A stretch of DNA of 64,000 bases from a virus. Lineage: Duplodnaviria > Caudoviricetes. The stretch covers positions 296,470-360,469 of IMG/VR virus record IMGVR_UViG_3300022719_000071. One strand, 5' to 3'. A program made the position numbers and the translations under genes. This document shows positions 6,497-57,448 of this stretch, one piece after another (the first letter of the stretch is position 1; each line of letters opens with the position of its first letter). The notes beneath the pieces are model-generated. The model saw only the letters and a list, made by a program, of their open reading frames with translations. It was not told where the DNA came from and searched no databases.

Positions 6497-9124
6497 ATGA
6501 ACAAACCAAATCTGCTCTTCGAAGGGCTCAGGATCCCCAGAAAGGTGTTCGATCAGTTCCTCTCCAAAGTGGAGGATGAGAAACTATTTCGACTTGGGTT
6601 CGAGGTCGAGTTCTATGCCGATGATGATTCTCTGAGTGGTAATCAAGTTGCCGACTTAAGTGAGCTTTCCGTTCGGGAAGCCATGGAATACTTCTATGAG
6701 CACGATATCAATATAGATAAGATGTATGAGTGGGCATCCGACCATGAGGAAGAATTACTAAGAGAAGCCGGATACACCCGTGAAGAGATTGAGAAAGAAA
6801 TCATTGATGACTGGTTTGATGATAATCCCGACTGGTACCAGGAATATCTAGAAGAAGAAGGCGAGTGGGATGACGAGGAGGAAGAGCCTGCTGAGGATGC
6901 CACTGATGAAGGGACTGCCAGGGAGGAAGTAGAGCTTGATATTCGTAACGGCAGAAAGGTCTGGTCTCGATACGATAACTTCGATAGTAAAATCAATGAT
7001 AGAATTAGCGAGATTTTTGATAACGTTGATATCGCTCAGGCATGGTGGGAAGATAACCGCTGGGAACTTATGCGTGAAAATAATTGGGAGCTAAGTGACG
7101 AGTATCGCCATGATGAAGTGGACGAGGACATCATTCGTGAATATGGTGGCGGTTTAGAAGGCATCGCTAATGATCTGAATGATGTAGTAGATGGTTATGT
7201 GTCTTCGGATGAAGGAGGATACTCTTCGAGCACCGAGAATTGGGTAGTCAAACCAGACGGCTCGCTTTCTGAAAACGGTGTTGAGATCGCATCTCCGATA
7301 TTTCCATTCTTTGCTGGCATCGAAGAAATGGAGAAGGTGTTTGATTGGATTGATCGCAACAGATATTACACTGATGAATCCACGGGACTTCACGTTAGTA
7401 TGTCCTTCACCGAAGAAAAAGCATTCGATGATATCGATTGGGTGAAAGTTGCCTTGCTATCCGGTGAAGAATATATGCTTCAGTTATTCAACCGATCTAC
7501 TAATCAATATACTACGTCCCAATTAAAGAACATGCAGGTTGCTGCTAAGAAAGGCAAGTTGGGCGATTTGAATAGCATGCGTTCCTTCCAAGAACTCAAA
7601 GATAAGTTTGCTGATGGCATCGCAACCGGTGAAAAATACAGTTCGTTCAATCTATCAGACTATGGAAGCGGTGGTCGTGTGGAGTGGAGAATCATAGGTG
7701 GACATCAATACCATCAACTGTTCAATACTGTAAAGGACAATGTTTTGAAGATGGCATTCGCCATGTACATAGGTTCGGAACCCGAGTTGTTCAAAGAACA
7801 ATACTTGCGGTCATTAGGGAGACTGCTTTCTCGTGTTACGGCGACTAAAGATGATCCTTTGAAAAGTAAAAGCGAACTTCTATATGGTAATGATGAAGAG
7901 GCTGCAATCCTATCTCGCAATCCATTGTACAAGTATGCCGTCCAGCTTTTGAAAAGTGACAAATCTATGATGACCGCATACAAAAACGTTACACTGGCTG
8001 GTGAGAGAATGCGAGATGAAGATGCTAATGCAAAACAGAGATTCGAATTCACTAAAGCCATGGGTGTCTTTGCTATGCTAGTCAGTAAAGTTGAAGCTAC
8101 TGAATATACTAAGAAGCTATTCCCATACTTGCAAGAAGAAGCGTACACCGAAAACCTAACGGTCCAACGGATAAGAAAAGTAGCTAGAAGAACTGCCAAT
8201 CACTACGGTTATACTGGTGCGGACTTCAAGGATGATTTGCATGTGGATCCCGTAACTGCATTGGCAACTCATTATCCTATAGCTGATCACATATCCGGTC
8301 TTAATCTATTAACTCGTGCTGCGGTATTGTTTGCTGATATGGATGACACTCACCAGCAACGAAAGATGGAGTTCATGAAGTATGTTCCTGGACTTCGAAA
8401 GTTCACAGCACAGTCCACCACTGAACTCATTCTAGCAATTGCTCTTTCTACCAAGAAGGACCAACAAGAACCAATGGCAGGATCTATATCTGACGCTATT
8501 GTATCATCAGTTGAATCCAATAATCTGGATGAGAAGAACTTGCAATTCATCAAACAACTGATGGATGATATTGGTGTTGATGCTCAGGATGTTATGACCA
8601 ATACGAACTATGACAGAAAGAAGGAAGTTATCCGACAGGTACTAGGTTATGACATTGAGAAAGTAGCCGTCACAGCCGATAATGCATTGCAAGCGATCTC
8701 TCCTGAGTTGATTCCAGAAGTCAGTCTGGCCAAGATCATTACCGGACTTCAACATAACGATGCAGACGAACAATCGGTGGCGGCTTCATTGGCTGCTCTT
8801 TGGATTGGAAGGATCTCTGATAAATTAGAACGTGGAATATTCATCTCAAGTAGAGCCGTAAAAGGATTAAAGATATTCATAGTGACCTATAATCTAATAC
8901 AACGTTGGAACGAAGCGGGAATCTTCGATGCACCTATTGCTAAGAAAGTAATGAAAGTCCTAGATTTCGTAGACCCAGAACTAGCCATAACAGTTTCCCT
9001 ATCCAGGATTAAGGCTAGATTGGGTCCGGAGCAACCTGTTTTCCAGACCCCTCCGAGCAATCCTGTGGCCAACGTTACTGCGTGGACTCCGGAAGTGGCA
9101 GCACGTGGTACCGAAAACCCTTGA
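6497..9124 (+). CDS. Putative amidoligase (COOH-NH2 ligase type 2) with long acidic insertion
   Basis: LGFEVEF, WVVKPDGSL, GVEIASP, STGLHVSMS, KYSSFNL, RVEWRIIGG. Confidence 0.7.
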   Translation: MNKPNLLFEGLRIPRKVFDQFLSKVEDEKLFRLGFEVEFYADDDSLSGNQVADLSELSVREAMEYFYEHDINIDKMYEWASDHEEELLREAGYTREEIEKEIIDDWFDDNPDWYQEYLEEEGEWDDEEEEPAEDATDEGTAREEVELDIRNGRKVWSRYDNFDSKINDRISEIFDNVDIAQAWWEDNRWELMRENNWELSDEYRHDEVDEDIIREYGGGLEGIANDLNDVVDGYVSSDEGGYSSSTENWVVKPDGSLSENGVEIASPIFPFFAGIEEMEKVFDWIDRNRYYTDESTGLHVSMSFTEEKAFDDIDWVKVALLSGEEYMLQLFNRSTNQYTTSQLKNMQVAAKKGKLGDLNSMRSFQELKDKFADGIATGEKYSSFNLSDYGSGGRVEWRIIGGHQYHQLFNTVKDNVLKMAFAMYIGSEPELFKEQYLRSLGRLLSRVTATKDDPLKSKSELLYGNDEEAAILSRNPLYKYAVQLLKSDKSMMTAYKNVTLAGERMRDEDANAKQRFEFTKAMGVFAMLVSKVEATEYTKKLFPYLQEEAYTENLTVQRIRKVARRTANHYGYTGADFKDDLHVDPVTALATHYPIADHISGLNLLTRAAVLFADMDDTHQQRKMEFMKYVPGLRKFTAQSTTELILAIALSTKKDQQEPMAGSISDAIVSSVESNNLDEKNLQFIKQLMDDIGVDAQDVMTNTNYDRKKEVIRQVLGYDIEKVAVTADNALQAISPELIPEVSLAKIITGLQHNDADEQSVAASLAALWIGRISDKLERGIFISSRAVKGLKIFIVTYNLIQRWNEAGIFDAPIAKKVMKVLDFVDPELAITVSLSRIKARLGPEQPVFQTPPSNPVANVTAWTPEVAARGTENP

Positions 9125-9149
9125 CTAACTCTAAGTGATAGGGTACCTT
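9121..9149 (+). promoter_or_regulatory. sigma70-like promoter for clpS
   Basis: TTGACT-N17-TACCTT, 8 nt before the ATG. Confidence 0.55.
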
Positions 9150-9157
9150 ATAGACCC

Positions 9158-9496
9158 ATGAGCACTGAAAACGAAAATTTAGATGATGACGGATCCCTGG
9201 TAGTGGATCGTCCACCGGCAGAAGAGCGCAAGGATCTTGCGCCCCCGCCGAAGTACGCAGTAATGCTACTAAACGACGACTTCACTCCGATGGACTTCGT
9301 AATGGCAGTCCTCGTGAAATTCTTCTCGAAGTCTCAAGAGGAGGCTGAGAAGATCACCATGGAGGTACACGAGAAGGGGGAGGGGTTGGCCGGTATCTTC
9401 CCGAAGGATATCGCAGAGACCAAGGCGTCTCAGGTGTGTCACATTGCGCAGTCCAATGGACATCCGTTTAGGGCCGACGTGAAAGGTCTCCACTAA
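9158..9496 (+). CDS. clpS: ATP-dependent Clp protease adaptor ClpS
   Basis: PPKYAVMLLNDDFTPMDFV, TMEVHEKG, AETKASQV, GHPF. Confidence 0.95.
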   Translation: MSTENENLDDDGSLVVDRPPAEERKDLAPPPKYAVMLLNDDFTPMDFVMAVLVKFFSKSQEEAEKITMEVHEKGEGLAGIFPKDIAETKASQVCHIAQSNGHPFRADVKGLH

Positions 9497-9612: not shown

Positions 9613-9622
9613 AATTTTTGAA

Positions 9623-9738
9623 GGCTGCGAGCCGAACGACAGATCATTATCGTTCATGTATAAACGGCGAGATGGTTCGATTCCATCATAGGTCTGGCGA
9701 CACGTTAAAATTGGTCTGGCACCAACTTGTTCGCAACC
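9623..9738 (+). ncRNA. YrlA-like Y RNA with tRNA-mimic domain
   Basis: GCCGAACG motif (9631-38); T-arm GATGG-TTCGATT-CCATC (9671-87); D-loop-like AATTGGT downstream of it; closing stem TGCGAGC/GTTCGCA; CAGATC/GGTCTG stem. Confidence 0.75.
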
Positions 9739-9744
9739 AAGAAG

Positions 9745-9786
9745 AAAAAGCCCGGAGGGGACGCCCAGCGCCCCTCCGGGCTTTTT
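9745..9786 (+). terminator. Intrinsic terminator between Y RNAs and Ro60 CDS
   Basis: AAAAAGCCCGGAGGGG...CCCCTCCGGGCTTTTT. Confidence 0.8.
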
Positions 9787-9830
9787 CGTTTCTACAACAT
9801 ACCCGATTGGACATCGGGGAGGAATACATC

Positions 9831-11615
9831 ATGGCAAACTACGCAAGAATTTCGGGCAAGACCCGTCGAAACACTCATCAGACTTCACAGACGAAGGCAA
9901 TCCCTGGTCGTGAAATCGAGATGAAGAAAAATCCGGCTGGAGGCGTGAGCTTCAAGTTGGACGACTTCGCTCGTCTACAGCGATTCATCATCCTCGGAGT
10001 TGAGGGGAACAGCTACTACCAGAGTCAGAAGACCCTGGTGAATCAGAACGTGAGTTCTCTGGAGCGCTGTCTGGACGCTGATCCGTTCCGTGTCATTGAC
10101 ATGGTTGTGGACATTAGTGTGAACGGTCGTGCCTTCAAGCAGGACGCTGGACTCTTCGTGTTAGCTGCTGCCGCTTCTTTCAAGGGTGGCGTGCGCTCCG
10201 GTCGCAAGAGCCCGCCGAACCGCAATCGATTCCAGTACGAGGAGAACTACCAGCAGGCTCTAGCCGAGTATGAGGCTTCCATCGTCATCGTGGACGAGGA
10301 GCACGCAGTCAAGGTTCGTCAGTACGCACTGGAGAAGCTGCCACAGGTGGCTCGTACCGGTACGGCGCTGTACACGTTCGCTGAGTTTGTACGTGGTCAG
10401 CGTGGATTCGGTCGCAGCCTGCGTCGTGCATTCGCAAAGTGGATGACTGACAAGCCGCTAGACAAGCTGGCCTATCAGGCATGGAAGTACAAGAGCCGTA
10501 ACGGCTGGACGTACCGTGACATCATGCGCCTCACGCACCCGGTAACAGACGAGCGTGCACGTTCAGACGTGTTCGGATATATGGTGAAGGGACAGCTACC
10601 GGAAGGTGCTGACCTGAGCAACCCGGCCCTGGCACAGATCGATGCGGCTGAAAAGCTGCTGAAGATCATGACCAACCGTACTAACGTGACCAAGCCGGTC
10701 GTCAAGGAAGCTGTCAAGCTCATCGTTGACCATCGCCTGACTCACGAGGCTGTTCCGTCCGAGCTTCGCAAGAGCCCAGAGGTTTGGGAGGCTCTGCTGG
10801 AGAACATGCCGCTTCAGGCTGCTGTCAGCAACCTGGGTGTCATGACCAGCACTGGTCTGGTCAAGCCACTGTCGAAGGCAGAGCGAAAGATCGTGGAGAT
10901 GCTTACCAACGTCGAAGCAATCAAGCGTTCTCGCATGCACCCGATGCGGTTCTACCTTGGTTCCAAGGTCTACGGCAATGGTCGTGGCGTGAAGGGTAGC
11001 CTGTCCTGGTCGCCAAGCCAGAACATCATGGACGCTCTGGATGGTGCGTACTACGCATCCTTCGGTAACGTCGAGACGACTGGCAAGACACTGGTCATCG
11101 CTGTCGATGACTCGGGTTCTATGGACTGGGCTAACACTTCGGTTCCGAACACTAGTCCATCGGAGATTGCTGCGGCAATGGCGCTGGTCACGTACCGCAC
11201 TGAGCCGAACAGCGTGCTGATCGGTTATTCTGATGGTGTTCGTGAGATGAAGGTGTCTCGTACACGTTCTCGCATCGACAGCATCATGAAGCATGTCGGT
11301 CATGGCGGTGGAACCAACACCACACTCCCGGTGCAGTACGCCTGGAACAACAAGCTGGACGTTGATGGCATCGTGTCCTACACAGACAACAACACCTGGG
11401 GCGCATGCTCTCGGGGCTGGAACAGTAATGGACATGTTACCCAGTGGGTGAATAAGTACGTGGATCGCTTCGGTCCAATGCGCTTCATCAACTGTGCGAT
11501 GGAGGCAAACAGTATCACTGATACTGATGCCAAGAATCCGTACATGTTCGAGCTTGTCGGTGTTGACGCCAATACCCCACGCATCATTAGCGAGTTCCTT
11601 GCTGGTAACCTGTAA
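9831..11615 (+). CDS. rsr: Ro60 / TROVE-vWA RNA-binding protein
   Basis: NPAGGVSF, KYKSRNGWTYRDIMRLTH, MPLQAAVSNLG, SRMHPMRF, vWA MIDAS DDSGSM, GGTNT; GGAGG RBS before ATG 9831. Confidence 0.93.
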   Translation: MANYARISGKTRRNTHQTSQTKAIPGREIEMKKNPAGGVSFKLDDFARLQRFIILGVEGNSYYQSQKTLVNQNVSSLERCLDADPFRVIDMVVDISVNGRAFKQDAGLFVLAAAASFKGGVRSGRKSPPNRNRFQYEENYQQALAEYEASIVIVDEEHAVKVRQYALEKLPQVARTGTALYTFAEFVRGQRGFGRSLRRAFAKWMTDKPLDKLAYQAWKYKSRNGWTYRDIMRLTHPVTDERARSDVFGYMVKGQLPEGADLSNPALAQIDAAEKLLKIMTNRTNVTKPVVKEAVKLIVDHRLTHEAVPSELRKSPEVWEALLENMPLQAAVSNLGVMTSTGLVKPLSKAERKIVEMLTNVEAIKRSRMHPMRFYLGSKVYGNGRGVKGSLSWSPSQNIMDALDGAYYASFGNVETTGKTLVIAVDDSGSMDWANTSVPNTSPSEIAAAMALVTYRTEPNSVLIGYSDGVREMKVSRTRSRIDSIMKHVGHGGGTNTTLPVQYAWNNKLDVDGIVSYTDNNTWGACSRGWNSNGHVTQWVNKYVDRFGPMRFINCAMEANSITDTDAKNPYMFELVGVDANTPRIISEFLAGNL

Positions 11616-13662: not shown

Positions 13663-13692
13663 CCTGAACCGGATAAATACTGGTTCAGGGGT
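13663..13692 (+). promoter_or_regulatory. Late-type TAAATA promoter in loop of an RBS-covering hairpin
   Basis: CCTGAACCGG-ATAAATA-CTGGTTCAGG; 3' arm overlaps AGGGGT RBS. Confidence 0.6.
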
Positions 13693-13700: not shown

Positions 13701-14615
13701 ATGACAATTAGAACTTACCTACCTGCTTTTGGATTGGGCATGCTGCTCCTTACGGCTTTATCCTTAGCAACAATAGCCGCATATCAAAGTATCATAGGTC
13801 TAGCAGACCTTTTCGCTGCACGTAAAGAAGTCGTTGTAATCATGGCTGTCTTTATCGAATGGGCGAAATTGCTATTTGCCGGTTCACTTCATATGTTTTG
13901 GAATTCACTTCCCTGGTGGAAGTGGATTGGTATAGCTATTGTGGTTATCCATATGGCGGTAACCAATATCGGAATTTACTCCTACCTGTCTTCTGGCTAT
14001 CTTCTCCAGGAAGCTCCTGTAGCGGCTCTAGAGCGGCGCATCACTGGGATTGACCAGGACATCAACCAACAGAAGAAAATCGAAGAGGAAGCATCCAGGC
14101 AAATCTCAGCTATGGATACAGCCTACCAGCGGTACGTTGAGGGGCTATACATCCGTCGTGCTGAACAATACAAAGCTACTAATGCAGAATTACGTGCACA
14201 GTTGGAAAAGCAACGTGATAAGGCCAGAATGGTAATTGATGGTCTTGAAGAAAAGAAGCGTGGTCTAACAGAAATTAAGGTTGATAATGCTGCCAAGCTG
14301 GGTAGCATTGAGCACATCTCTGCTTTTATTGGGTCTGACCAAGAGAGCATCATGAAGATGGTTGTTCTGTTCACTATCTTGCTTATGATGGGTCTTGATC
14401 CTGCGGCTGTTCTGTTGGTCGTAATGTTCACTCATTTATTAAATAAATGGATGGGGGTTAAAAATCCAAAACCGGTTTTAGAAGTGGCTGAGAAGGCCAA
14501 AGAAGAGCCTAAGCCACTGGATAAAAAAGCTGAAGAGCAAGCTTACCAACAACATTTGAAGGACATTGGATACATGGAAGGATCTCCTGGGTGGTACCGT
14601 AGAAAGAAGCTATGA
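13701..14615 (+). CDS. Membrane protein with coiled coil (DUF4407-like architecture)
   Basis: Three N-terminal hydrophobic segments, coiled coil, further TM containing GLDPAAV. Confidence 0.6.
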   Translation: MTIRTYLPAFGLGMLLLTALSLATIAAYQSIIGLADLFAARKEVVVIMAVFIEWAKLLFAGSLHMFWNSLPWWKWIGIAIVVIHMAVTNIGIYSYLSSGYLLQEAPVAALERRITGIDQDINQQKKIEEEASRQISAMDTAYQRYVEGLYIRRAEQYKATNAELRAQLEKQRDKARMVIDGLEEKKRGLTEIKVDNAAKLGSIEHISAFIGSDQESIMKMVVLFTILLMMGLDPAAVLLVVMFTHLLNKWMGVKNPKPVLEVAEKAKEEPKPLDKKAEEQAYQQHLKDIGYMEGSPGWYRRKKL

Positions 14616-16327
14616 AACTAGTGCAACTGTTTGAACAAGTCAGTCTGTTTGAGGCGGCGAAGGATCGCTACATGCAGCCTTTTACTGGTCTATTGTCAAT
14701 TGCCGAACAACTAGGTTTGGATAACCTATCTGAAGGAATTGACAACGCTATATCTTGGGCAATGCGAACTTTGAAAAAGGAGGATAAGATTGTCTGGTTT
14801 CTTCGATGGATGAAGCTTGAAGCTCTTCGTATTCTCAAGCTCAATACTGAAGGTGAAGTGCGGGAACGTGTACACAAAGCATGGGACAAAGCTGCAACTA
14901 AAATATCCAAGAATTCTGGCATCTCAAAAGAACAGATCGAGTCCTATGCCAATCAATTTGTTAGTGGTGGATTCCGAACTCAGATGAATCATTACATGAG
15001 TCTCGGACTACCAGCCATTGATGACTATGTGTTTACTTGGCAGACTCCAGAGCAAATTTTTAGAGACTTTCAAGTAATTGAGCAGGAATGGCAAAAGAAA
15101 TTGCAAGAACTTGTCCCAATTGAGCGTGACGAAGTTGAAACTGTTATTAAGTTCCCTGATGGCTCGGAATGGATTAACCTCAATAAGCCGGCGTGTGATG
15201 TTGAAGCAAAAGCCATGGGTCATTGTGGGAACGCTGATACCTATCACCCCGATGATACCGTTCTATCGTATCGTACCATCGAAAAGAATAACAAGGGAGA
15301 GGAGATGTGGAAGCCACGTCTCACATTTATTTTGGATACCAAGAATGGTATGCTGGGTGAGATGAAAGGACGTGCTAATCAGAAGCCCGATGCCAAGTAT
15401 CATGGTGTAATCATAGATCTACTAAAGCACCCATTGATCAAAGGCATCAAAGGTGGAGGTTACAAGCCTGAGAACAATTTCAGCATCGATGATCTACCAA
15501 AAGAAGTTGTCGAAAAACTAATCGATATGAAACCTGGATTGGCTGACATTCGATACGATTACAATAAGCGTGGTATAACCCGTGAGTTGCTGACTAGGAT
15601 GAATCAGAAGTTTGATGATGAAACCGACGGTGCTCTTGAACTACCAGAATACGATAATAAGCGTAAAGTATTCCTCGGAGAAACCATGGAGGGTTCTGTA
15701 GACGACTTCGTTAAGGAGTATGGTGGGGATACAGCCAACTGGGTGGTCAATATTCTTTCTGGTGAAGAACACCTTGATATCTATCATACTGCTAATGACC
15801 CCGAAGACTTGTGGAATATACTACCAGACAAGATAACAACCCGAGTTGGTCATTGGTTATTGAAGAACTACTCTGATGCGGTTGAAGAATGGAAAGAAGA
15901 GAACGACGAAAACTTTGATCCATCTGACGCTAATGCTGCTTGGCACATCATTGAAGAGCATAGCATAGATGAAGTGAAGACTGCACTCAATAGTGCTATG
16001 CTGGATGCAGAGTATATTGGTACTGAAGCAGAAATGCTAAACTCCTTGAAAGATTGGCTAAAGAAACTTCCCAACCGAGATGGATTTGATATCTCCTTAT
16101 ACCCAGGACACACAAAATGGGATGCCAAGCAATACGTAGTGATATCAGAAAAATCGATGATCGATATTGTGACAGATATGATGGATCAGGTGGCTTGGCA
16201 TGGAAGCCTGATATCGTTTTTTGAGATTGAAGACCTTGAATCTCCTTATCATGGATGGCATGGGTTTGATGAACAAGTCGCCATCGAACAGGCGGAAGAA
16301 AGGCTATCCGTGGAAGGTATTCTATAA
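14612..16327 (+). CDS. Leader-bearing protein with PcfJ-like motif
   Basis: MKLVQLFE...LFE|A leader; EAKAMGHCG, EMKGRANQKP. Confidence 0.6.
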   Translation: MKLVQLFEQVSLFEAAKDRYMQPFTGLLSIAEQLGLDNLSEGIDNAISWAMRTLKKEDKIVWFLRWMKLEALRILKLNTEGEVRERVHKAWDKAATKISKNSGISKEQIESYANQFVSGGFRTQMNHYMSLGLPAIDDYVFTWQTPEQIFRDFQVIEQEWQKKLQELVPIERDEVETVIKFPDGSEWINLNKPACDVEAKAMGHCGNADTYHPDDTVLSYRTIEKNNKGEEMWKPRLTFILDTKNGMLGEMKGRANQKPDAKYHGVIIDLLKHPLIKGIKGGGYKPENNFSIDDLPKEVVEKLIDMKPGLADIRYDYNKRGITRELLTRMNQKFDDETDGALELPEYDNKRKVFLGETMEGSVDDFVKEYGGDTANWVVNILSGEEHLDIYHTANDPEDLWNILPDKITTRVGHWLLKNYSDAVEEWKEENDENFDPSDANAAWHIIEEHSIDEVKTALNSAMLDAEYIGTEAEMLNSLKDWLKKLPNRDGFDISLYPGHTKWDAKQYVVISEKSMIDIVTDMMDQVAWHGSLISFFEIEDLESPYHGWHGFDEQVAIEQAEERLSVEGIL

Positions 16328-46365: not shown

Positions 46366-46369
46366 ACAC

Positions 46370-47463: not shown

Positions 47464-47502
47464 GCTAAATACCCGACTATTCAGAGTATCTGGTTTGAGA
47501 CA

Positions 47503-47601: not shown

Positions 47602-48083
47602 GATTGTATGAATTCCTTAAACTTACTGAATCCAATATAAACCTATCTGGGTGGTACAACGCAAAAACTGGAATTTTTTTGCAATTAGATCGTGGTGAAG
47701 ATGAGATGTATCACCACTTTGATCTTGCTTTCGATAATCCAAAAGAATTTGGTGGTAAGCGTGTTCTTGGTAATGTCGTGGATACTACAGACCTGATAGC
47801 AAAGGTAGCGAAGGACGGGTGGGTGAGAACCAATCATTTCGGTGGTGTTTTATATCTAGATGTTACGCCAGAAACCGCCAAGCCTGCTGTAGCGTGGGGT
47901 GCAGAATATACTAGTAACATCGTAGTTGGTATCTGGCCGGTGGGCAAGAGCTTTGGTGAAATCAAGGAAATCAAGCTCAATAACCTCAAAGAGATTAAAG
48001 CGTTTCTGGAAAGTAAATTGACCGAAACTATCAATTCACGTTCTTTTGACACGCTGGTTATCACTGATCCATTGCCGGGATAA
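47598..48083 (+). CDS. Leader-bearing hypothetical protein
   Basis: MRLYEFLKLTE|S. Confidence 0.7.
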   Translation: MRLYEFLKLTESNINLSGWYNAKTGIFLQLDRGEDEMYHHFDLAFDNPKEFGGKRVLGNVVDTTDLIAKVAKDGWVRTNHFGGVLYLDVTPETAKPAVAWGAEYTSNIVVGIWPVGKSFGEIKEIKLNNLKEIKAFLESKLTETINSRSFDTLVITDPLPG

Positions 48084-48840: not shown

Positions 48841-48881
48841 AGATCCTTGAGTTCCTACAACCAGGGTACGATTACCATTAA
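48837..48881 (+). pseudogene. Leader-bearing stub MKILEFLQPGYDYH*
   Basis: ATGA overlap with GNAT stop; broken frames follow to about 49030. Confidence 0.45.
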
Positions 48882-49076
48882 AACACTTTGAGAATACTAA
48901 GTACTTTACAAAACGGTGTCTGTGGTAAATGCAGTTGAGATTGATGGATCGAATGCTCTGGAGTGGATCATGTTGGAGTCCATAGGATTCAACAACCGTT
49001 CTTATGATGAACAAGGATCCATACACTAGCAGTAACATGGAAGCACGTCTGTTGAAATTCTAATTGGACTACTCAT

Positions 49077-49313
49077 ATGAAGACAATCGTAATTAGCCCG
49101 GAAAACGTATCTCTTTTTCTTCTAGAGGATTCTGTTCAGCTTGATGTTCAGCCTGACCACATCTATTCGGCCAATCACAATGCTACGATTACGTTTCTGA
49201 ATGCATCAAACTGTGCGATACACGAAGACGTGAATGCACCAGTAGATTGGGCACCGGAAAAGTATCTGTTTGATGGAGTCACCTGGAGTGCTAATCCAGA
49301 CTACGTGGGATAA
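49077..49313 (+). CDS. Small fibre-associated protein
   Basis: C-terminal PVDWAPEKYLFDGVTWSANPDY typical of tail-fibre accessory proteins. Confidence 0.55.
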   Translation: MKTIVISPENVSLFLLEDSVQLDVQPDHIYSANHNATITFLNASNCAIHEDVNAPVDWAPEKYLFDGVTWSANPDYVG

Positions 49314-49317
49314 GAAA

Positions 49318-50586
49318 ATGACTGGAAAACTCATAATAAAAAGTGGAAGCATTATAACAGTTCAATCCGGAGGACGGGCCATCATAGGCCCAAAGGAAGT
49401 TGTTGGTTGGGCAGAATGGGATGGTAGTAGCGACAGTGTTAATCAAAGTGTTATAAGCTCTGGCATTGGCGGATATCCATTAAATGCCAATCTATACAAC
49501 ACCGATTCGATTTCTTTGCTATACCGGAATGCTTCTTTTAACTTCACTGCTACAGCGTCTACTTTGTTTCTATCTGGGAATACCATTACCCAAGGTTCGT
49601 CTGGTGAGTTTATATTCGGACCATCTCCAGGACAGAACAATTCTGACATCACTAATGTAGACAGTAATACAATCATCTTTACCAATCGTAATAACACTAC
49701 CACAACTAGCGCATGGCAAGGAACCGCATATAACATTTCTGCTGCCCCAGTAGGAACATATTCGAGTGGTTCTACACGTACGTTGTCTACTAGTGGATTT
49801 ACGCAGGGTGGTAACTATTTTCAAGTCAACCGATTTGCAGTTGGTGAAATAAGCTTTACGCAACGTCTAAAGGCAAACAACGGATCACAACAATTTGTTC
49901 GTACTGTTTCTAACAACTCGTTGAACAGTGCGAATGCGGCATCTGGTTCCGATTTTAGTGCATCGGGGAATACGTTTTTGAGAACATTCGGTGGCGGTGA
50001 CACCGGAGGACATGGAGACGTTGGAAATAGCCGTGTGGCAATCCTACGTGATGATACCGATGATGAAGAGCTATTCTTTACATCGTTTTCTAATCCTACT
50101 CTTAGTGTTGGAACATTATACAACACTAGCAGCATTGACGGGCCATCTTCTAGTTTCTACTTGCATAAAATCATTGATGAAGACCACGTTTTGGTGACAT
50201 ACTCTGATACTACCACCGGTGATCTGTCTGGTGTAGTATTGACATTGAGTGGTAACGATGTTATTGCAATCGGTACTCCATTTACTTTGCGTTCTGGAGA
50301 GGAATGGTTGACCGTGAAAATAATTTCTACTGCGGCGAATCAGGTTATGATTATTGGTGACGTGGAAGAAGATGCAGATCCAGGAAACCGAGATATCAAG
50401 GTAGCCGTTGTTACCTTCGCAGACGTAAACACTCCTACAGTAGAATCCGTAATCGATATTGATGCACTACATAGTGCTGGTGCTGGAAATGCTCATCCGC
50501 AAATACTTCCGTTAGATGCTAGCAGGATTCTGGCTCTATGGAGTGACGGTACATCCAATCTTCAAGGGCGTGTGCTCAACCTATAA
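49318..50586 (+). CDS. Beta-rich fibre / receptor-binding-like protein B
   Basis: G/S/T/N-rich beta repeats; N-terminus MTGKLIIKSGS shared with 51119. Confidence 0.6.
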   Translation: MTGKLIIKSGSIITVQSGGRAIIGPKEVVGWAEWDGSSDSVNQSVISSGIGGYPLNANLYNTDSISLLYRNASFNFTATASTLFLSGNTITQGSSGEFIFGPSPGQNNSDITNVDSNTIIFTNRNNTTTTSAWQGTAYNISAAPVGTYSSGSTRTLSTSGFTQGGNYFQVNRFAVGEISFTQRLKANNGSQQFVRTVSNNSLNSANAASGSDFSASGNTFLRTFGGGDTGGHGDVGNSRVAILRDDTDDEELFFTSFSNPTLSVGTLYNTSSIDGPSSSFYLHKIIDEDHVLVTYSDTTTGDLSGVVLTLSGNDVIAIGTPFTLRSGEEWLTVKIISTAANQVMIIGDVEEDADPGNRDIKVAVVTFADVNTPTVESVIDIDALHSAGAGNAHPQILPLDASRILALWSDGTSNLQGRVLNL

Positions 50587-50590
50587 TGGT

Positions 50591-50621
50591 TAAATACAGG
50601 GTATCTACTAGGAACCCTGTA
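50591..50621 (+). promoter_or_regulatory. TAAATA promoter with RBS hairpin (copy 1)
   Basis: TACAGGGT-N11-ACCCTGTA; stem conserved, loop different in copy 2 (52397-52427). Confidence 0.65.
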
Positions 50622-50622
50622 A

Positions 50623-50898
50623 ATGCGTCTTGTTGAATTCTTCGAGCTTCTGGAAGCCAAAGACAGACTAGAATATCTTGCTGACAAAAATGCCAGCAAG
50701 ATCTTCGCTCGTTGTATAGAGCTGGTGCGCAATGGATGAAAGAACGTGGAATGAAACTTCATGCTTCTGGTACGCAATCAGATGAAGCACAGGCAGCATG
50801 GGAGAAATTTACTCAACAGGGTAAAGTTGCCAAAGGTAAGCACGGACGACGCTATCTGGAGAAAAAGGATGAAGCTATTAGAATTTTTAGATGACTGA
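50623..50898 (+). pseudogene. Chimeric scar: 5' end of the 52429 gene joined out of frame to the 3' end of the GNAT gene, then MKLLEFLDD* stub (50869)
   Basis: Junction at CGTTG microhomology 50710-14. Confidence 0.85.
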
Positions 50899-51118
50899 TG
50901 ATTTACTGCTGTAATCCTATCTCGCAGAACAAACCAAATGCGGCATCATGAATGCTTTGATACACTTTCTTGAAGAAATAGCAAGATCCAAAAGGGAAAA
51001 AGAGGTATGAGAGATTATTCGTCAACTGGCGACCATCTTATGTCTCGATCCGCTAAATAATTTGTAATGACACCACAATCCGGATACACCGGAATCTCAG
51101 AGTAACAGGAAAAATTTA

Positions 51119-52369
51119 ATGACTGGTATAATCAATATCAAAAGCGGAAGCCTTCTTACTATCCAATCTGGTGGGGTGCTAAGCACCGGCCCATTGCCAC
51201 CACAGCCTCTTTGGGGTGGCTACGATGGCAGCAACAATGGTGCCTCTAATAACCTTGGAGCGCTTGGTACTAGTGGAATATTGAGGTTCTTTTCTCTTCC
51301 AATTATGGACACCGACAAGGTGATGCTGGGTTATTTTGGATCTGGAGAAAGTAGTTTCCCACGTGCTATAATTGCGTCCAGGAGTGGTGATACTGTTTCA
51401 GTAGGTAGCAGTCTACTGCTTAATAGTATCAACACTAGCAGTAACAGATTTGGTATTGCAGGATCGGATACCAACCGTGCTATTGCGTACTATCGAAATG
51501 GCGATGCCTCAGACGGTAAGGTTCTGACCGTATCCGGCACCACAATAAGTTCTGCTGGCACAACTTTTGGTGTCATTGGTTCTGGTCGTCCCAACAATCT
51601 AGAGATGGCACAAATCGATACAAACAGACACATCATTACATGGAACACTTCTACTGGTGGGTTTGAGACCCGTGTTCACGCTGCTACCAATACTGGTGGA
51701 ACAATTACCAGTGGTGGCACTGGTAATTTGATATTCACCAATCACGTTGCTAATGACAACTCCAGTGCTAAGTTAGACAGCACTCGTATTATCAATGCCT
51801 ATCGACAGAGCCTTAGTGGTCAACCGGACAGCAATGACATCTTTATTCAAGTACATGAGAACACTTCAGGAACCACGATATCATCCGGTACTCCTGTGAA
51901 GATTGAAGAGTCTGGTAATAACACAGAGAAAATGTTGTGTGTGATTCCAATCACCGCAAATGCGGCTGCTGTTATCTACGGCGGATCGGTTCCTGACAAA
52001 ACCTTCATTCAGTTCTACTCCATTAACGGAACCACGTTGACCGCAGAAGGTGGAGAACAGACATTGGATAATAAATTCTGGTCCGGCAAGAACCCATCCG
52101 AATCAACCTTCAATTGCACCAAGCTAACAGAGACAGAGTTCATGGTGTCCTATATTACTAATTCTGGTGGTATCTTAGACTGGGTAAGTCGTGTAATCAC
52201 CTTTCCAACGACTACTACTTTCTCATTGGGTAGTGAGGTATTGCTACTACCAAGTGGAACATTTGCAAACGAAAGAGTTATTCAAACATTGAATAGCACC
52301 ACTGTCCTGGCTTTGTACACCGAGAATACATCCACTGACACAGCACGAGCAATCGTAATCAACGTCTAA
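51119..52369 (+). CDS. Beta-rich fibre / receptor-binding-like protein B'
   Basis: MTGIINIKSGS; repeats such as VSGTTISSAGT; divergent paralog of 49318. Confidence 0.6.
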   Translation: MTGIINIKSGSLLTIQSGGVLSTGPLPPQPLWGGYDGSNNGASNNLGALGTSGILRFFSLPIMDTDKVMLGYFGSGESSFPRAIIASRSGDTVSVGSSLLLNSINTSSNRFGIAGSDTNRAIAYYRNGDASDGKVLTVSGTTISSAGTTFGVIGSGRPNNLEMAQIDTNRHIITWNTSTGGFETRVHAATNTGGTITSGGTGNLIFTNHVANDNSSAKLDSTRIINAYRQSLSGQPDSNDIFIQVHENTSGTTISSGTPVKIEESGNNTEKMLCVIPITANAAAVIYGGSVPDKTFIQFYSINGTTLTAEGGEQTLDNKFWSGKNPSESTFNCTKLTETEFMVSYITNSGGILDWVSRVITFPTTTTFSLGSEVLLLPSGTFANERVIQTLNSTTVLALYTENTSTDTARAIVINV

Positions 52370-52396
52370 GGCGTGTCCTCAACCTACTGTAACGGT

Positions 52397-52427
52397 TAAA
52401 TACAGGGTACCATCAAGGAACCCTGTA
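52397..52427 (+). promoter_or_regulatory. TAAATA promoter with RBS hairpin (copy 2)
   Basis: TACAGGGT-ACCATCAAGGA-ACCCTGTA. Confidence 0.65.
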
Positions 52428-52428
52428 A

Positions 52429-54480
52429 ATGCGTCTTGTTGAATTCTTCGAGCTTCTGGAAGCCAAAGACAGACTAGAATATCTTGCTGACAAAAATGCC
52501 AGCAAGATATTTGCTCGTTGGAAACAAAAAGTCAATGACGAGGGAATGACAGGATTACCCCAAGATTGGATCGAAGCAATAGCCGATGGCATCATCCCAG
52601 ATGCCATGACCATGGAACAATTCAAGGATTTGAATGACCTCGCACAACGTCACCAAGATATGCCAAAGTGGGTAGTAGATTTCTTCGCCCAATTCGATCC
52701 ATCCAAGAATAACAAGTATACCGATTGGATTCTACGCCAGTGGCTCTCTGACAAGCTGTGGCTAGAAGACACCTACAAGCTCACCAGCACGCTTGAAACA
52801 TTCGAGGAGCACCGCAAGAAGCTAGGTAACATGGACATCCTAGATCGTAATGGAGACCCATTAGGACCGCCCCCAGAGCGCCGTGGAGATATTAACGCCT
52901 GGAAAGACTACCGAACCCTCTTCCACGCTCTTAGGCCGCTACAAGGCACTACAGCGGCTGGTGAGAAGGTATCAAATTTCTTGGCAAAAGATAACATTCA
53001 GAAAATGATGCACATTCCTGTTCCAGATCCAGTGAGTACATTTGGTCCAAATGGTGAGCATGACATTGATGAGATCCAAAGCGATTACGCAGAATGGGCT
53101 GGAAAGGACGGTGGTGAGTTTGATACCCATGATTGGTATGACTTCGTTGGTTCGGATGAGGATACCGAATCTACCACTGAAATCAAGCCAATTTACAAGT
53201 CCGACCGTTTGGCAGTTCTTCAGCCAAACACACGACGTGCAGCTTGTGAGCTAGGACGTGGCACCGAGTGGTGCACCGCTTCTACGTCATCCCACAACCA
53301 CTTCTGGAATTATGCACCGAGTGGCCCGCTGTATGTCATATTGACTGACAAGATGGGCAAGTATCAGTTCCACTTTGATTCGGGGCAATTTGCCGATGTA
53401 CATGATAATATGCTTAGCGACGAGCAGAAAGCAGAATTGGCGAATGCATACCCCGAACTACGTAAAATTTTTGCTGATGAAGCTGTAAAGCATGGTCAAC
53501 TATGGTTGATCGATCCAGCAATGATTACTTCGGAGTATCTGGAGAACATTCAAAATGATCCAGACATCTATGGTCCTTATAGCCGGGAAGCTCGAAGTCG
53601 TTTGGAAATGCTGATGCAGAAAATTCCAAAGGCATTTGATGGCAAGGCTGATGAGAAAGCATTGCGTATGGCTGAGGAGTGGCTAAGGAAGAATAAACCA
53701 GAAGAGGCTTGGAGGTATGTACGTAAGCCAACTGAGCAAGACTTCTTGGATGGTATTCAATCCATGCCATCTGATGACATTCGTCAGGTGACCAATACTT
53801 GGAACATTATGAATTTTGCAAGGCAAAACAACATTGAACTTTCGGATGAGGTATACGAGGCTGCGGTTGCGTCTGACTCCGAATCTATTCTATCGGTCAC
53901 AGTGTCTGCTATATCCAGGAACCCACAGTGGGTTCTGGCCGCTGTTAAGGACCAGCCACGTTTCGTTGAGATGATTTATGCAACCCTATTTGGTGATTCT
54001 CAGTATGACATAGAGACAGAGCGTGCTCAGGTTATGCACCATGCACTAATGTCCCTGGATGGCGGTAAGGAGTTAATAATGAATGCACTATATAACCGTC
54101 CAACTATGGTGCGTTGGTTAGGTAATGTATTTGGTATTGACCCATGGAAGCACGCCTTCAAAATTGCACATGTAATATGGAATGATCATAGCGTAATGAA
54201 CCAATTGCGTAAGATTCTTGAGACACAGAACTTCAGTAACGAAGAACTAGTCGATTTGCTGATGTACCTGTTTGATATTAACGCAATCAATTTGTCACTG
54301 GTCAAAACAATCGAGCACAAGCTTGGTGGTTCTCTTCCATTGCAGTTACAGAAGAAGATTGTTCAAGAGAATCCACTGAACATTCAATTGATAGGAAATC
54401 CGGACCCAAATGTGCTGAAGATAGCACAAGCTATGGTCAAGGGTAATAGCGAGCTATCCTCGTTGCGCAGAGCGCAATGA
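52429..54480 (+). CDS. Leader-bearing WCT-family protein 2
   Basis: MRLVEFFELLE|A; FDPSKNNKYTDW; AACELGRGTEWCTAS; KYQFHFDS. Confidence 0.75.
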   Translation: MRLVEFFELLEAKDRLEYLADKNASKIFARWKQKVNDEGMTGLPQDWIEAIADGIIPDAMTMEQFKDLNDLAQRHQDMPKWVVDFFAQFDPSKNNKYTDWILRQWLSDKLWLEDTYKLTSTLETFEEHRKKLGNMDILDRNGDPLGPPPERRGDINAWKDYRTLFHALRPLQGTTAAGEKVSNFLAKDNIQKMMHIPVPDPVSTFGPNGEHDIDEIQSDYAEWAGKDGGEFDTHDWYDFVGSDEDTESTTEIKPIYKSDRLAVLQPNTRRAACELGRGTEWCTASTSSHNHFWNYAPSGPLYVILTDKMGKYQFHFDSGQFADVHDNMLSDEQKAELANAYPELRKIFADEAVKHGQLWLIDPAMITSEYLENIQNDPDIYGPYSREARSRLEMLMQKIPKAFDGKADEKALRMAEEWLRKNKPEEAWRYVRKPTEQDFLDGIQSMPSDDIRQVTNTWNIMNFARQNNIELSDEVYEAAVASDSESILSVTVSAISRNPQWVLAAVKDQPRFVEMIYATLFGDSQYDIETERAQVMHHALMSLDGGKELIMNALYNRPTMVRWLGNVFGIDPWKHAFKIAHVIWNDHSVMNQLRKILETQNFSNEELVDLLMYLFDINAINLSLVKTIEHKLGGSLPLQLQKKIVQENPLNIQLIGNPDPNVLKIAQAMVKGNSELSSLRRAQ

Positions 54481-54552
54481 CGTAGCACGCCACCGAAGAG
54501 GAGATGACAAACATGATAGCTGAAGTAATGGAGACATTAAAACAAAGATTAC

Positions 54553-56418
54553 ATGGTGATTAAAGCGATGATACCACTAACAGTAATCATGAACGAGGAA
54601 GAGTTGCTGGAGAATCGTTTGGAGTTTCTTCAGCAAAAGTTCGCTGAGCCTTTGGCTGCCAGAGCAGCACAAGACCCCCAGGCCAAATCTGTGGCCGGTG
54701 GGGACGTATTCACGTTCTTGGTGAATGCTGACCCGTCTCCCAACAAAAAGTTCGTCCAGTGGCTTATAGGGCTCTATCTGAAGGGAAACCTGATGCTAGA
54801 AGATGTGTACAAGGCCAATGAGTATCTTCAGTTGTTCTTGAAGAACGTGAAGAAGCTTCCTGGGCCTATGCGTGATATCAATCGTTACAAAAACATCAAT
54901 GACCTGTACGACGTGATCGAACAGTACGAGGAAGTGCAAACACAGAGTGAGATCAATCTTAAGCTTGACCAGAAGATGCATGGCCCTGAACATGTGAACA
55001 TCATCTATAACAGCCCGACGATGAAGGTGTTGCAATTGAAGAGCAAACAGGCAGCTTGCTATTTTGGCAAGAACACCAAGTGGTGTACGGCTGCACGTAA
55101 CAACAACATGTACGATACTTATGCCAAGCAAGGTCCAATCTTTATTGTCCTGGTAAAGAAAGAGAACGTGCGTTTCCAATTGCATTTCGAGTCCAATCAG
55201 TTTATGAATGAGAAGGACCAAAGTGTTGACATGATGGAGCTTGGAGACAAATACCCAGAACTCAAAAAGGCGCTTGGTTTATTGTATAACAAGGCTGTGG
55301 TCACACAAGACCCATCGAATATTTTCCAGTTGGAGAATCCAGTGGATGAGGTTGTGGAAACAGCATTCTATCGTAAACCATCGATGATTAAGAACATAAG
55401 CGATCCAAGCATGCCGATGATTATCGGTGCAATAAAAAAGGAACCTGAGATCATAATAGATTTGATCAAGACTGGTGTTGAGGTTCCGGATGAATTGCAG
55501 ACGTATGCTGTGCAGCAGAACTTTTCTTTGTCAAGAAAGATTCCGAAGTTTCAAGGGATGTATGAGCAGGCTGAGGAGATGAATAACGACCCTGATGGAT
55601 TATCATTGGAGGAGCAGGCACAGCGTGATGGGTACACGATGGAAGTGTTAATGCGTGCTGTTGAGGCTGGTGATGAACAGGGGTTGAGTCTATACGGATT
55701 TGACTCCACACATGGCTTTTTTATTAATAACTATTACAATAGGCATGAGTTTATTTCGGAATGGATTCCGGAAGATAATAGAAATAATGTTGCTCATTGG
55801 GCATCCAGCGTGTTGCACGGTGAAGGCGAAAATATTGAGATCTATGAAATTCCAAGTGATACTCCGGAAATAGTGCTAAAAGAATTACCAAAGTATCGTG
55901 CGGCTATTAGTCAGTACATTTTGAATCTCATCAACGATCCTGATAATCAAGAGTTGCTGGATACGTATGAGGACTTTGATCCAACCAATGAAAAAGAAAT
56001 CATGAGCTTCCTTTATGATGAAAAGAACTACGGAGACGCAGAGCAAATTCGAATTGCTCTTGTTAGTGCTTCTCACAGCGCCATTGAATATGGCATAGAA
56101 AATGAGATGGCTAATGATTTTTACAGGTGGTTTGATAGCTTGGAGGGTACATCACCGATTAGTGTTCATGTTGTACAAGAGAAGGGTGTAATGGTGTATG
56201 TGGATAAAGAAGAGGCTATTGACATTTTATCCAAGGGAATTAATGAGCAGTACCCTTTGATTAATGATTGGCATGAAATTGCGGAGTTTCCAAATTTCTA
56301 TCAGCCACGGTACGGTTGGGATGGGTTCAGCAAAGAGGCTGCTGAGGAAAGGCTATATGATGAGCTTCCTGTGGAAGTTAAAGAGCTACTTGACCCAAGC
56401 GTGAGAGAACCGTTCTAA
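54553..56418 (+). CDS. WCT-family protein 3 (start possibly 54589)
   Basis: ELLE|N; ADPSPNKKFVQW; AACYFGKNTKWCTAA; RFQLHFES. Confidence 0.75.
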   Translation: MVIKAMIPLTVIMNEEELLENRLEFLQQKFAEPLAARAAQDPQAKSVAGGDVFTFLVNADPSPNKKFVQWLIGLYLKGNLMLEDVYKANEYLQLFLKNVKKLPGPMRDINRYKNINDLYDVIEQYEEVQTQSEINLKLDQKMHGPEHVNIIYNSPTMKVLQLKSKQAACYFGKNTKWCTAARNNNMYDTYAKQGPIFIVLVKKENVRFQLHFESNQFMNEKDQSVDMMELGDKYPELKKALGLLYNKAVVTQDPSNIFQLENPVDEVVETAFYRKPSMIKNISDPSMPMIIGAIKKEPEIIIDLIKTGVEVPDELQTYAVQQNFSLSRKIPKFQGMYEQAEEMNNDPDGLSLEEQAQRDGYTMEVLMRAVEAGDEQGLSLYGFDSTHGFFINNYYNRHEFISEWIPEDNRNNVAHWASSVLHGEGENIEIYEIPSDTPEIVLKELPKYRAAISQYILNLINDPDNQELLDTYEDFDPTNEKEIMSFLYDEKNYGDAEQIRIALVSASHSAIEYGIENEMANDFYRWFDSLEGTSPISVHVVQEKGVMVYVDKEEAIDILSKGINEQYPLINDWHEIAEFPNFYQPRYGWDGFSKEAAEERLYDELPVEVKELLDPSVREPF

Positions 56419-57293
56419 TGAAATTGTTTGAGCTATTTCAAATCACTGAACTGTCTGGCAGCGAGCTACGTCAAATTCGTAATTTGGAGACTATTCCATC
56501 CCCTGGCGATTTGCAACAGCTTCTAATCGATCAAGGTATGGAATTAATCGCCTCTGGTTCTTATAGCCAAGTCTATGGTCATTCTGGTAGTTCATGGGTT
56601 GTCAAAGTAATTGGTCAACCCTTGAACATGTCGAATGAAAACGAGCGGTGCGGTGTACAATGGCTTCGTTATTGCAACAAGAACTGGAACACTAATACAC
56701 ACATCATGCGTGTTCCATTCGTCAGAACTATCAGGCTCTCCAATGTAAGATCGGATTCACCAGAGCGTATCTATGTGGGTGTGTTGGAGAGATTGGAGCC
56801 CATCTCCGAAAATGAAATGCGTGCTATGCCACGAATCATGTTGAAAAACGGAGAGATAGAGAAGCTAGCCGAAATAGCATATGCCGGTATCTTTAGTGGT
56901 TACATATCTGGTGTATGGGATGGATTTGCAGAACAGGTATACAAAAGGTACCCGAACGCTGTGCGTCCGTTGATTGATGGATTGTTGCAAGATTACATCA
57001 AACATCAAGACATAGATACACAGGATCCCGATGAACTCTATATCAACCCAATTCCAGAATGGCCTTATGACCCAAACGAAGTGACAGAGATTTTAGGCAC
57101 GGTTGGTGGCTTTGATATCATGAAGAGCTTGGCACGTATTTTCATTCGTGAGTCAGGCATGGACACTCCGCTCATTCAAGCAATCCGTGGGTTGAACAAA
57201 TTCTCATGTACGAAGGATTTGCATTTTCAGAACATCATGATTCGTCCAAGCACTGGTGAACTGGTAATCACTGATCCATTCGTGGATTTTTAA
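56418..57293 (+). CDS. Leader-bearing protein-kinase-like protein
   Basis: MKLFELFQITE; ASGSYSQVY...VVKV; DLHFQN; VITDP. Confidence 0.75.
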   Translation: MKLFELFQITELSGSELRQIRNLETIPSPGDLQQLLIDQGMELIASGSYSQVYGHSGSSWVVKVIGQPLNMSNENERCGVQWLRYCNKNWNTNTHIMRVPFVRTIRLSNVRSDSPERIYVGVLERLEPISENEMRAMPRIMLKNGEIEKLAEIAYAGIFSGYISGVWDGFAEQVYKRYPNAVRPLIDGLLQDYIKHQDIDTQDPDELYINPIPEWPYDPNEVTEILGTVGGFDIMKSLARIFIRESGMDTPLIQAIRGLNKFSCTKDLHFQNIMIRPSTGELVITDPFVDF

Positions 57294-57307
57294 TAGAGGA
57301 TAGCCCC

Positions 57308-57448
57308 ATGAGGTTGTATGAATTCTTAAAACTAACCGAGTCACGAAAAATTAGCTGGTTAGCTGATGTCATCTATGACCAACTGGTGCATGGTGATTGG
57401 ACCGATGAAAGCGGGTATCAATTATCACCAAGATCTTTCCAAAAGTAG
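57308..57448 (+). pseudogene. Leader-bearing stub truncated by a convergent gene
   Basis: MRLYEFLKLTESRK...; first 12 aa identical to 47598. Confidence 0.55.

Follow-up and report, generated by a model that had tools for sequence, protein, structure and literature searches.

In bacteriophage T4 the internal proteins (IPs) have only a short N-terminal tag in common, the capsid-targeting sequence (CTS), in which residues 4 and 7 are used for targeting and residues 8 and 10 for processing by the prohead protease gp21 (PMC9026906; PMC3012670). The first 10 residues are sufficient for capsid targeting, and an Asp at the cut position blocks processing (PMC9026906). Here we analysed a 64,000-nucleotide (nt) stretch of an uncultured jumbo phage, referred to as the window (positions 296,470-360,469, the last 64 kb of the 360,469-bp IMG/VR record IMGVR_UViG_3300022719_000071, which has an estimated completeness of 91% and a G+C content of 46.7%). 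In this window a short N-terminal leader of the type M[KR][LI]x[EQD][FL], usually followed by an (L/I)xE site, recurs on otherwise unrelated proteins. The original prediction, made from the window sequence, had compared this leader with the T4 CTS, and the CTS it cited agrees with the T4 record, which gives MKTYQEFIAE/A for ipII and ipIII and MKTFKEF...ITE/A for ipI (a slash marks a cut site throughout). Our analysis indicates that the leader is probably a capsid-targeting propeptide, removed by a Peptidase_S77 protease, which loads a modular and often exchanged set of late proteins into the head.

Other phages also carry proteins inside the head. T4 Alt, from which gp21 removes a 7-residue N-terminal propeptide, is injected along with the DNA (PMC9026906; PMC5512222). 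Passages of the reports on the heads of phiKZ and SPN3US describe many internal proteins with propeptides that are cut by the prohead protease, paralog families being typical (PMC5694885, PMC7411985). Iyer et al. 2017 described polyvalent proteins and MuF- or portal-fused effectors, for which packaging into the head and injection together with the DNA are predicted (PMC5512222). The Dar proteins of phage P1 (DarA, DarB, Hdf, Ddr) appear, in the passages of the reports that deal with them, as head-internal anti-restriction proteins loaded during assembly, some of them processed (PMC9024508, PMC12810830, PMC5512222).

Based on a Pfam search of the genome we identified a Peptidase_S77 prohead protease (PF03420, 88 bits, genome 165788-166438) and a gp23-type major capsid protein (PF07068, 283 bits); scaffold-like and portal-like genes, assigned by position and size only, adjoin these genes. 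The closest capsid proteins were those of Sinorhizobium phage Phosso (62%) and of the Rak2-like jumbo phages CBB, GAP32 and BF (56%). With megablast, 35 kb of the window gave zero matches among 50,697 phage records, and no cultured phage among them was similar at the DNA level. An S77 protease is also encoded by PA5oct, SCTP-2, Phosso and Vibrio 2.275.O. The capsid proteins of the present phage, CBB, Phosso, Vibrio 2.275.O and PA5oct have an L-x-E/[NST]A site in common at about residue 50, which fits the two masses listed for the capsid protein of 121Q, 42.2 kDa (predicted) and 37 kDa (the second value) (PMC5646251).

In the mechanism that we propose, the tagged proteins would be late products of TAAATA promoters, encoded for the most part in translationally coupled operons, and the tag would draw them into the core of the assembling prohead. 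The gp21-type (Peptidase_S77) protease would then cut after the Glu of (L/I/V)xE, as at the capsid LxE site, and the mature proteins would remain in the head until infection, when they would exit together with the DNA. A complex prediction for the scaffold protein and the first 40 residues of the protein starting at 52429 gave a score of 0.00, which, obtained without controls, speaks neither for nor against binding. Just upstream of the protease gene (genome 164756-165757) lies a gene for a 333-amino-acid (aa) protein that starts MSRYQNLMTE/ILDSIFE/G; as MSRYQNLMTE is nearer to the T4 CTS MKTYQEFIAE than the leaders of the window are, this protein may be a core or internal protein.

The leader was found to be enriched at gene starts. 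M[KR][LI]x[EQD][FL] follows 24 of the 14,587 ATGs of the genome, and 14 of these 24 lie inside the window, which makes up 18% of the genome. The strict motif starts 13 of the 461 called genes, where 0.2-0.4 would be expected from position-wise N-terminal residue frequencies, and of 2,423 internal Met residues only 4 are followed by it. All 17 starts listed in the original prediction were present and read as claimed. Further leaders occur in late units outside the window, at genome 60576-58822 (minus strand; 584 aa, MKLLEFLDIIRE/DD, with a domain in common with the protein starting at 14612), 283602-283072 (minus strand; 176 aa, MLKLHEFITLTE/K) and 236261-236932 (223 aa, MKLYEIKAASFAKLLE/Q). 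The leader is 5-14 residues long and always begins at residue 1, multidomain relatives included, and the (L/I)xE site claimed after most leaders was found within 14 residues in nearly all cases. At position 2 seven codons are used for K/R (AAA, AAG, CGC, CGA, CGT, AGA, AGG) and at position 3 five for L/I (CTA, CTT, TTA, TTG, ATC), and the leaders at 47598 and 57308 differ by five nucleotide changes, each of them synonymous. The codon diversity and the synonymous changes together indicate that the leader is conserved as protein and not as DNA. An RNA-level or translation-initiation motif was ruled out by the codon diversity, and a signal peptide was ruled out as the tag, read directly from the sequences, is acidic and amphipathic.

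Some of the listed starts have a simpler origin. Those at 47503, 48837, 50623, 50869 and 57308 had been listed with the others and are in fact stubs of 32, 14, 38, 9 and 46 aa (the tagged genes of the window, the stubs and the units that hold them are on the plus strand, and genes are named by their start). Three of them are explained by a tandem segmental duplication, 48674-50714 against 50710-52520, the copies of which are 94-98% identical at both ends and enclose divergent proteins of 438 and 416 aa (49270-50586 and 51119-52369), for which no family match was found. The 14-aa stub at 48837-48881 (MKILEFLQ...) follows the repeat copy 48674-48798, and the 9-aa stub at 50869-50898 (MKLLEFLDD, then two stops) follows the copy 50710-50834. 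The 38-aa stub (50623-50739) duplicates the 5' end of 52429; the repeat copy in which it lies (50581-50739, with TAAATA at 50591) is 94% identical to 52387-52520. At 47466-47601 a TAAATA (47466-47471) precedes the 32-aa leader-only mini-open reading frame (47503-47601), which overlaps the next start through ATGA. The 46-aa stub (57308-57448, MRLYEFLKLTE/S...) is the 5' remnant of a gene like the metagenomic P0194, which has the leader, an N-domain and a kinase domain.

Paralogy also contributes. When the first 20 residues were removed, BLAST linked 43886, 52429 and 54589 with one another, the C-terminus of 14612 with 54589, and 14612 also with the minus-strand leader protein at genome 60576; these were the only links among the leader proteins. 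In a profile comparison 16875 and 17729 proved to be remotely paralogous (probability 93%, identity 21%). Despite the 21% protein identity, 33 of the first 36 nt agree between the two genes, which points to local gene conversion. Lys at position 2 is in addition common in bacterial genes. The duplication with its stubs, the conversion and the paralogous trio would all suit a shared N-terminus that is a by-product of descent, tandem duplication, gene conversion or a translation-initiation optimum and plays no part in targeting. We regard this as very unlikely: with the paralogs discounted, at least seven unrelated families carry the leader, with many codons in use for each conserved residue. 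The tag, its Glu included, is kept across about 100 distant homologs in which its length varies, and it is tied to late units and to virion proteins of PA5oct. It is also nearly absent from the other 448 genes, which likewise need efficient initiation.

The leader was also seen in homologs and other genomes. Metagenomic homologs of the 43886 family start with MRLQEFFILLE, MRLLELFTLLE, MRYREFLLE or MRAQEFLVE. In the 17729 family an E/[ATSV]P[LIV] junction was present in 80 of 104 homologs, with V, L or I at P3 in 75 of the 80, and both ends of the leader are kept over lengths of 8-14 residues. In the kinase family of 56418, conservation of M1 and of the leader Glu (E11) reaches at least 90% at a mean column identity of 19%, and the shortest leaders are just M-[KR]-[LIV]-x-E. 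Three unrelated families had a strict-type leader in 50%, 84% and 56% of their members, as compared to 3% of the genes of the present genome. Fusion relatives join the 17729 domain to ART-PolyVal (P0064, P0068, P0070) or to GNAT (P0121, P0124), and in these the leader precedes whichever domain is first and not the 17729-like domain. A relative in AlphaFold-DB begins at residue 16 of the 17729 model, without the tag, and the tag is of low confidence or disordered in both AlphaFold2 models made (17729 and 56418). On a distant 155-kb contig 8-9 genes among 20 begin with the leader, and one of these has an HD_4 domain. Five relatives were scanned for the leader pattern; the IUPAC pattern was too loose for direct counts and the matches were read by eye, after which Phosso had about 13 leader-type matches and SCTP-2 about 17.

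The hexamer TAAATA is under-represented genome-wide (147 sites against about 260 expected), and half of its sites are found no further than 80 nt ahead of a gene; the genes concerned include those for portal, capsid and tail. With this depletion and placement it behaves like a T4-like late promoter, and a similar promoter motif has been reported for CBB and GAP32 (PMC5259590). Most leaders had been placed in units preceded by TAAATA, and this was borne out: such units hold 11 of the 13 leader genes and 142 of the 448 other genes (Fisher p = 1.7e-4), and a twelfth leader gene, 47598, sits behind the promoter of the 47503 stub. Judged by the promoter motif, the tagged genes thus appear to be expressed late. 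The start of many leader genes overlaps the stop codon before it (ATGA or TAATG), so that translational coupling is probable. Nine TAAATA sites have a start codon exactly 11-12 nt downstream (e.g. 6485-6499), a spacing that would give leaderless or nearly leaderless late mRNAs.

TAAATA was also observed in or beside hairpins, at 6476-6496, 50591-50622 and 52397-52428 (ACCTGT-CTAAATA-CAGGT; TAAATACAGGGTAyC...GGAACCCTGTAA), and TAAATACAGG has 5 copies on the plus strand against 0.4 expected. Promoter and stem-loop cassettes of this kind could act as recombination joints, like the promoter early stem-loops (PeSLs) of T4-type phages (PMC2839356). The cassettes of leader and promoter sit at duplication and recombination joints, which indicates that cargo genes are exchanged between relatives; in a 77%-identical relative the operon is kept, with other genes replacing 16327 and 16875. 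The C-terminus of 47598 (...LVITDPLPG, 48040-48083) resembles the conserved C-terminus of the 56418 family (...LVITDPFVDF, 57250-57293), and a leader gene starts immediately after both. The 47598 gene may contain what is left of a kinase, or it may be the scar of a recombination.

A link to virions was provided by PA5oct, in the virion proteome of which 93 proteins among 461 coding sequences were detected (PMC7318152). The top three annotated PA5oct genes by the leader matrix were EST35_0349 (MHLFELFDQIE/K), EST35_0205 (MKLFEVFTLYE/D), which is a homolog of 43886, and EST35_0381 (MKILEFNLTE/K). These three and EST35_0150 (MKINDIITE/G) are all flagged as virion proteins by electrospray ionization tandem mass spectrometry (ESI-MS/MS); with 20% of the coding sequences detected, four of four tagged proteins would be found by chance with a probability of about 0.002. 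EST35_0150 (73 aa, L009:32921-33142) lies directly after the portal gene, and its leader-bearing homolog in Vibrio 2.275.O, NVP2275O_441 (80 aa, L007:13-255), has the same place, which is that of T4 gp67/gp68. No homolog of this pair was found in the present genome. Taken together, the S77 and gp23 genes, the (L/I/V)xE site conserved in about 100 homologs, the N-terminal placement, the late units and the PA5oct virion proteins make a T4-like CTS propeptide the best reading, and to this extent the portable leader of the original prediction stands.

The cargo had been described as an arsenal of unrelated enzymes. This holds in part: the leader occurs on at least seven unrelated families, and kinase and GNAT stand as enzymes, while two groups of paralogs and the five stubs fall outside the description. 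The modular cargo would comprise protein-kinase-like, GNAT and amidoligase-like proteins, PcfJ-like and ParB-like candidates, the HRxxH family and relatives of PA5oct gp205. The last unit of the window (52429-57448) is headed by TAAATA at 52397-52402 and contains the kinase claimed earlier, 56418 (56418-57293, 291 aa, leader MKLFELFQITE/L), which has a protein-kinase-like fold with intact catalytic residues. Its best 50 structural matches in PDB were all kinases or aminoglycoside phosphotransferases (probability 0.77-1.0, all but two at least 0.9; E about 1e-3), with the N-lobe aligning best. K63 and N272 are invariant in the family and D267 and D286 at least 90% conserved, corresponding to the beta3 Lys, the catalytic-loop D..N and the Mg-binding Asp. 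A sequence search of PDB gave zero matches, and tblastn against cultured phages gave one, a 'kinase protein' of Stenotrophomonas phage DLP_6. The GNAT acetyltransferase was likewise found as claimed, at 48088-48840 (250 aa, leader MKLQE/L), with Pfam Acetyltransf_1 at 31.3 bits against a cut-off of 20.7, over residues 186-227 only. Between the 32-aa stub and this gene lies 47598 (47598-48083, 161 aa, leader MRLYEFLKLTE/S).

Four further assignments of the original prediction stay borderline or leads. The amidoligase, 6497 (6497-9124, 875 aa), has a loose leader, MNKPNLLFE/G, and matches Amidoligase_2 (PF12224) at residues 219-313 with 23.2 bits against a cut-off of 22, over profile positions 15-128 of 245; its TAAATA (6485-6490) lies 12 nt before the ATG, inside the hairpin ACCTGT-CTAAATA-CAGGT. 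The other three are in the operon 13701-18589, headed by TAAATA at 13674-13679. The first gene of this operon (13701-14615, 304 aa) has a hydrophobic N-terminus without a leader and is syntenic in the relative L015. It is followed by 14612 (14612-16327, 571 aa, leader MKLVQLFE/QVSLFE/AA), the C-terminus of which is common with 54589. For this protein PcfJ is a lead from an Atlas structure match over residues 165-380 (TM 0.81, PcfJ in 21% of cluster members), with no Pfam match to PcfJ PF14284. For 16327 (16327-16878, 183 aa, leader MRLLQFLE/A), which has the motif DGWHRIGA, ParB_N is a language-model or structure lead only (Atlas cluster score 0.90, ParB_N in 63% of members); it has no Pfam match, and a PDB sequence search gave only ParB rows at E about 2.

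A zincin-like domain had also been claimed, for which the candidates are 16875 (16875-17732, 285 aa, leader MKLIDLMRHTRIDE/AP) and its remote paralog 17729 (17729-18589, 286 aa, leader MKLLDLMRHTRIDE/AP). In the widespread 17729 family HRxxH, E213 and E217 are invariant; as the motif is HRxxH, without the Glu of HExxH, zincin-like stays a lead only, and zincins were among the best whole-domain PDB rows with Z 3.1-3.5 only. The 17729 model has a predicted local distance difference test score (pLDDT) of 91.5 yet no clear known fold: against PDB, Foldseek found nothing below E 0.2 and VIA-align no clear fold, and tblastn against cultured phages gave zero matches. For the ten unassigned leader proteins Pfam gave nothing usable at E up to 5. 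Elsewhere in the window a PHROG 'RNA-binding protein' gene was observed at 9618-11615 and, on the minus strand at 38783-41538, an NAD salvage pair, a nicotinamide phosphoribosyltransferase and a cytidyltransferase + Nudix.

Other members of the locus could be structural. In the unit 43408-47161, headed by TAAATA at 43378-43383, the largest protein is 43886 (43886-46213, 775 aa, leader MRLSEFFVLLE/AKDRL), the N-terminal half of which is homologous to EST35_0205 and for which a PDB sequence search gave noise only. Its paralogs are 52429 (52429-54480, 683 aa, leader MRLVEFFELLE/AKDRL) and 54589 (54589-56418, 609 aa), which has a decayed leader, MNEEELLE/N, an N-terminus like 43886 and a C-terminus like 14612. 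In the same unit 43408 (43408-43872, 154 aa, with LIE at residues 13-15) and 46370 (46370-47161, 263 aa, loose leader MWLLE/N, PHROG 13138) match PHROG families labelled 'virion structural protein'.

The main rival to the propeptide-borne effector set is that the tagged proteins are packaged and processed but are mostly structural components of an inner body or core, as in phiKZ and 121Q, and not enzymes for the next host. 121Q, a phage of the same supergroup, gave an inner-body-type bubblegram (PMC5646251). The largest tagged proteins, 43886, 52429 and 54589, form a paralog family without an enzyme signature, like inner-body sets, two locus members have the PHROG label, and in PA5oct and Vibrio 2.275.O a small tagged protein lies within the head module. 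We nevertheless hold this rival to be unlikely, as the kinase family retains its full catalytic residues and GNAT, HD_4 and ART-PolyVal domains stand behind the same tag. The exchange of cargo between close relatives also fits accessory functions better than core structure.

It was also considered whether the tag is another N-terminal signal, either a Clp degron or adaptor signal or a membrane or secretion signal. A 112-aa open reading frame at 9158-9496 resembles a gene of the relative L015 (3724-4059) that has a ClpS Pfam match, and related jumbo phages encode ClpS, ClpX, ClpP and ClpA/ClpB-like proteins. The N-terminal Leu that would be exposed if 56418 were cut after ITE is a classical ClpS N-degron residue. 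Such a signal is highly improbable as an explanation, since the acidic and amphipathic tag is no signal peptide, it ends in an S77-type cleavage motif, and the tagged PA5oct proteins were recovered in virions, unlike what is expected for a degradation tag.

Several points weigh against the leader being a capsid-targeting propeptide of the T4 kind. A leader matrix built from the present phage gave the T4 CTS a score of 0.9 and its own leaders 11-19; with this poor score homology to the T4 CTS is not established, and common descent of the two is plausible from their sequences. The (L/I/V)xE site is short: with [LIV]xE sought within residues 3-15 it was present in 31% of late-unit genes, 11% of other genes and 16% of random internal 13-aa windows. 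Several leaders have D or Q at position 5, and in the leader of 48088 the one site of this kind is LQE, at residues 3-5. That the leaders of 16875 and 17729 are nearly identical indicates conversion at the DNA level and not independent selection. In the scan of five relatives the strict tag was not enriched in the S77-bearing CBB, which makes the tag lineage-specific rather than universal. The PA5oct virion list includes 'virion-unrelated enzymes', and detection by mass spectrometry is thus not fully specific. The phage itself is uncultured, and targeting and cleavage are inferred here from its genes. The same is true of packaging, injection and an effector role, and the loading of the head for injection and host takeover, as originally proposed, goes beyond the portable leader in this respect; injection and effector function are suggested by analogy with T4 Alt, the IPs and polyvalent proteins.

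If the tag works as in T4, a simple rule would allow the proteins that large uncultured phages bring into the cell before their own gene expression to be recognised from sequence; such host-takeover and anti-defence factors are otherwise found only through virion proteomics of cultured phages. More tentatively, and in our estimate with somewhat less than an even chance, the tag may be a general packaging code, readable from sequence, across the broad and mostly uncultured jumbo and T4-superfamily phages with an S77 protease. Every M[KR]h-x-[EDQ]-h...(L/I/V)xE protein in such genomes would then belong to an injected arsenal of kinase, GNAT, ART, HD/ppGpp-hydrolase-like, ParB-like and PcfJ-like proteins, repertoires could be read from metagenomes, and the cassette of late promoter and leader would be a recombination joint for cargo exchange between phages. 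The T4 capsid-targeting principle would be widened from three small proteins to a dozen large ones, several of them enzymes, in a distant lineage, and a ready-made packaging tag would be available for the engineering of jumbo-phage heads.

In the literature searched we found no description of such a leader outside the T-even phages; the search was limited and does not prove novelty. The principle is that of T4; the literature searched has no account of this consensus, its scale, its enzyme cargo or its jumbo-phage setting. Like the P1 Dar proteins, the tagged proteins would be head-internal proteins loaded during assembly, some of them processed. Loading of the Dar proteins depends on a hierarchy of partner proteins rather than on a common short tag, and to our knowledge P1 has no S77 protease. 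The proteases of phiKZ and SPN3US, which form a separate phage lineage, cut at S/A/G-x-E, and we know of no shared short N-terminal tag described for these phages.

With polyvalent proteins the locus has in common its domain vocabulary, that is ParB-like, PcfJ, zincin-like metallopeptidase (MPTase), ART-PolyVal, GNAT and amidoligase domains. The polyvalent criterion of two or more disparate effector domains fits the fusion relatives P0064, P0068, P0070, P0121 and P0124, whereas the genes of the window are mostly single-domain or without assigned domains, mostly separate and each with a leader of its own, and loading would be by a cleavable tag and not by fusion to MuF or portal. T4 Alt resembles the present cargo as a large enzyme in the head with a short N-terminal propeptide. 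It is an ADP-ribosyltransferase, whereas the cargo here is kinase-like, GNAT and so on, and ART-PolyVal stands behind the tag only in metagenomic relatives.

The T4 IPs differ from the present set in several respects. They are three basic proteins of 8-20 kDa, whereas here at least 12 tagged genes, besides the stubs, encode cargo of 160-875 aa, enzymes included, in a 360-kb jumbo phage of the Rak2 supergroup that is known from its genes alone. The present consensus lacks one residue ahead of E-F, and the stretch behind E-F is mostly longer (MRLVEFFELLE/); metagenomic relatives of the form M[KR]xxEF[IL]xE/ (MRANEFIIE/, MKATEFINE/) differ from T4 MKTYQEFIAE/ mainly in having one residue fewer. 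The layout of the leader is nevertheless that of T4: Met, a basic residue, hydrophobic residues three apart around an acidic one, and a terminal (L/I/V)xE. Both systems combine a short M-K N-terminal tag, with a hydrophobic and E-F core and an (L/I)xE end, with late genes, a gp21/S77 protease in the genome, cargo that is unrelated apart from the tag, and a hyperplastic locus.

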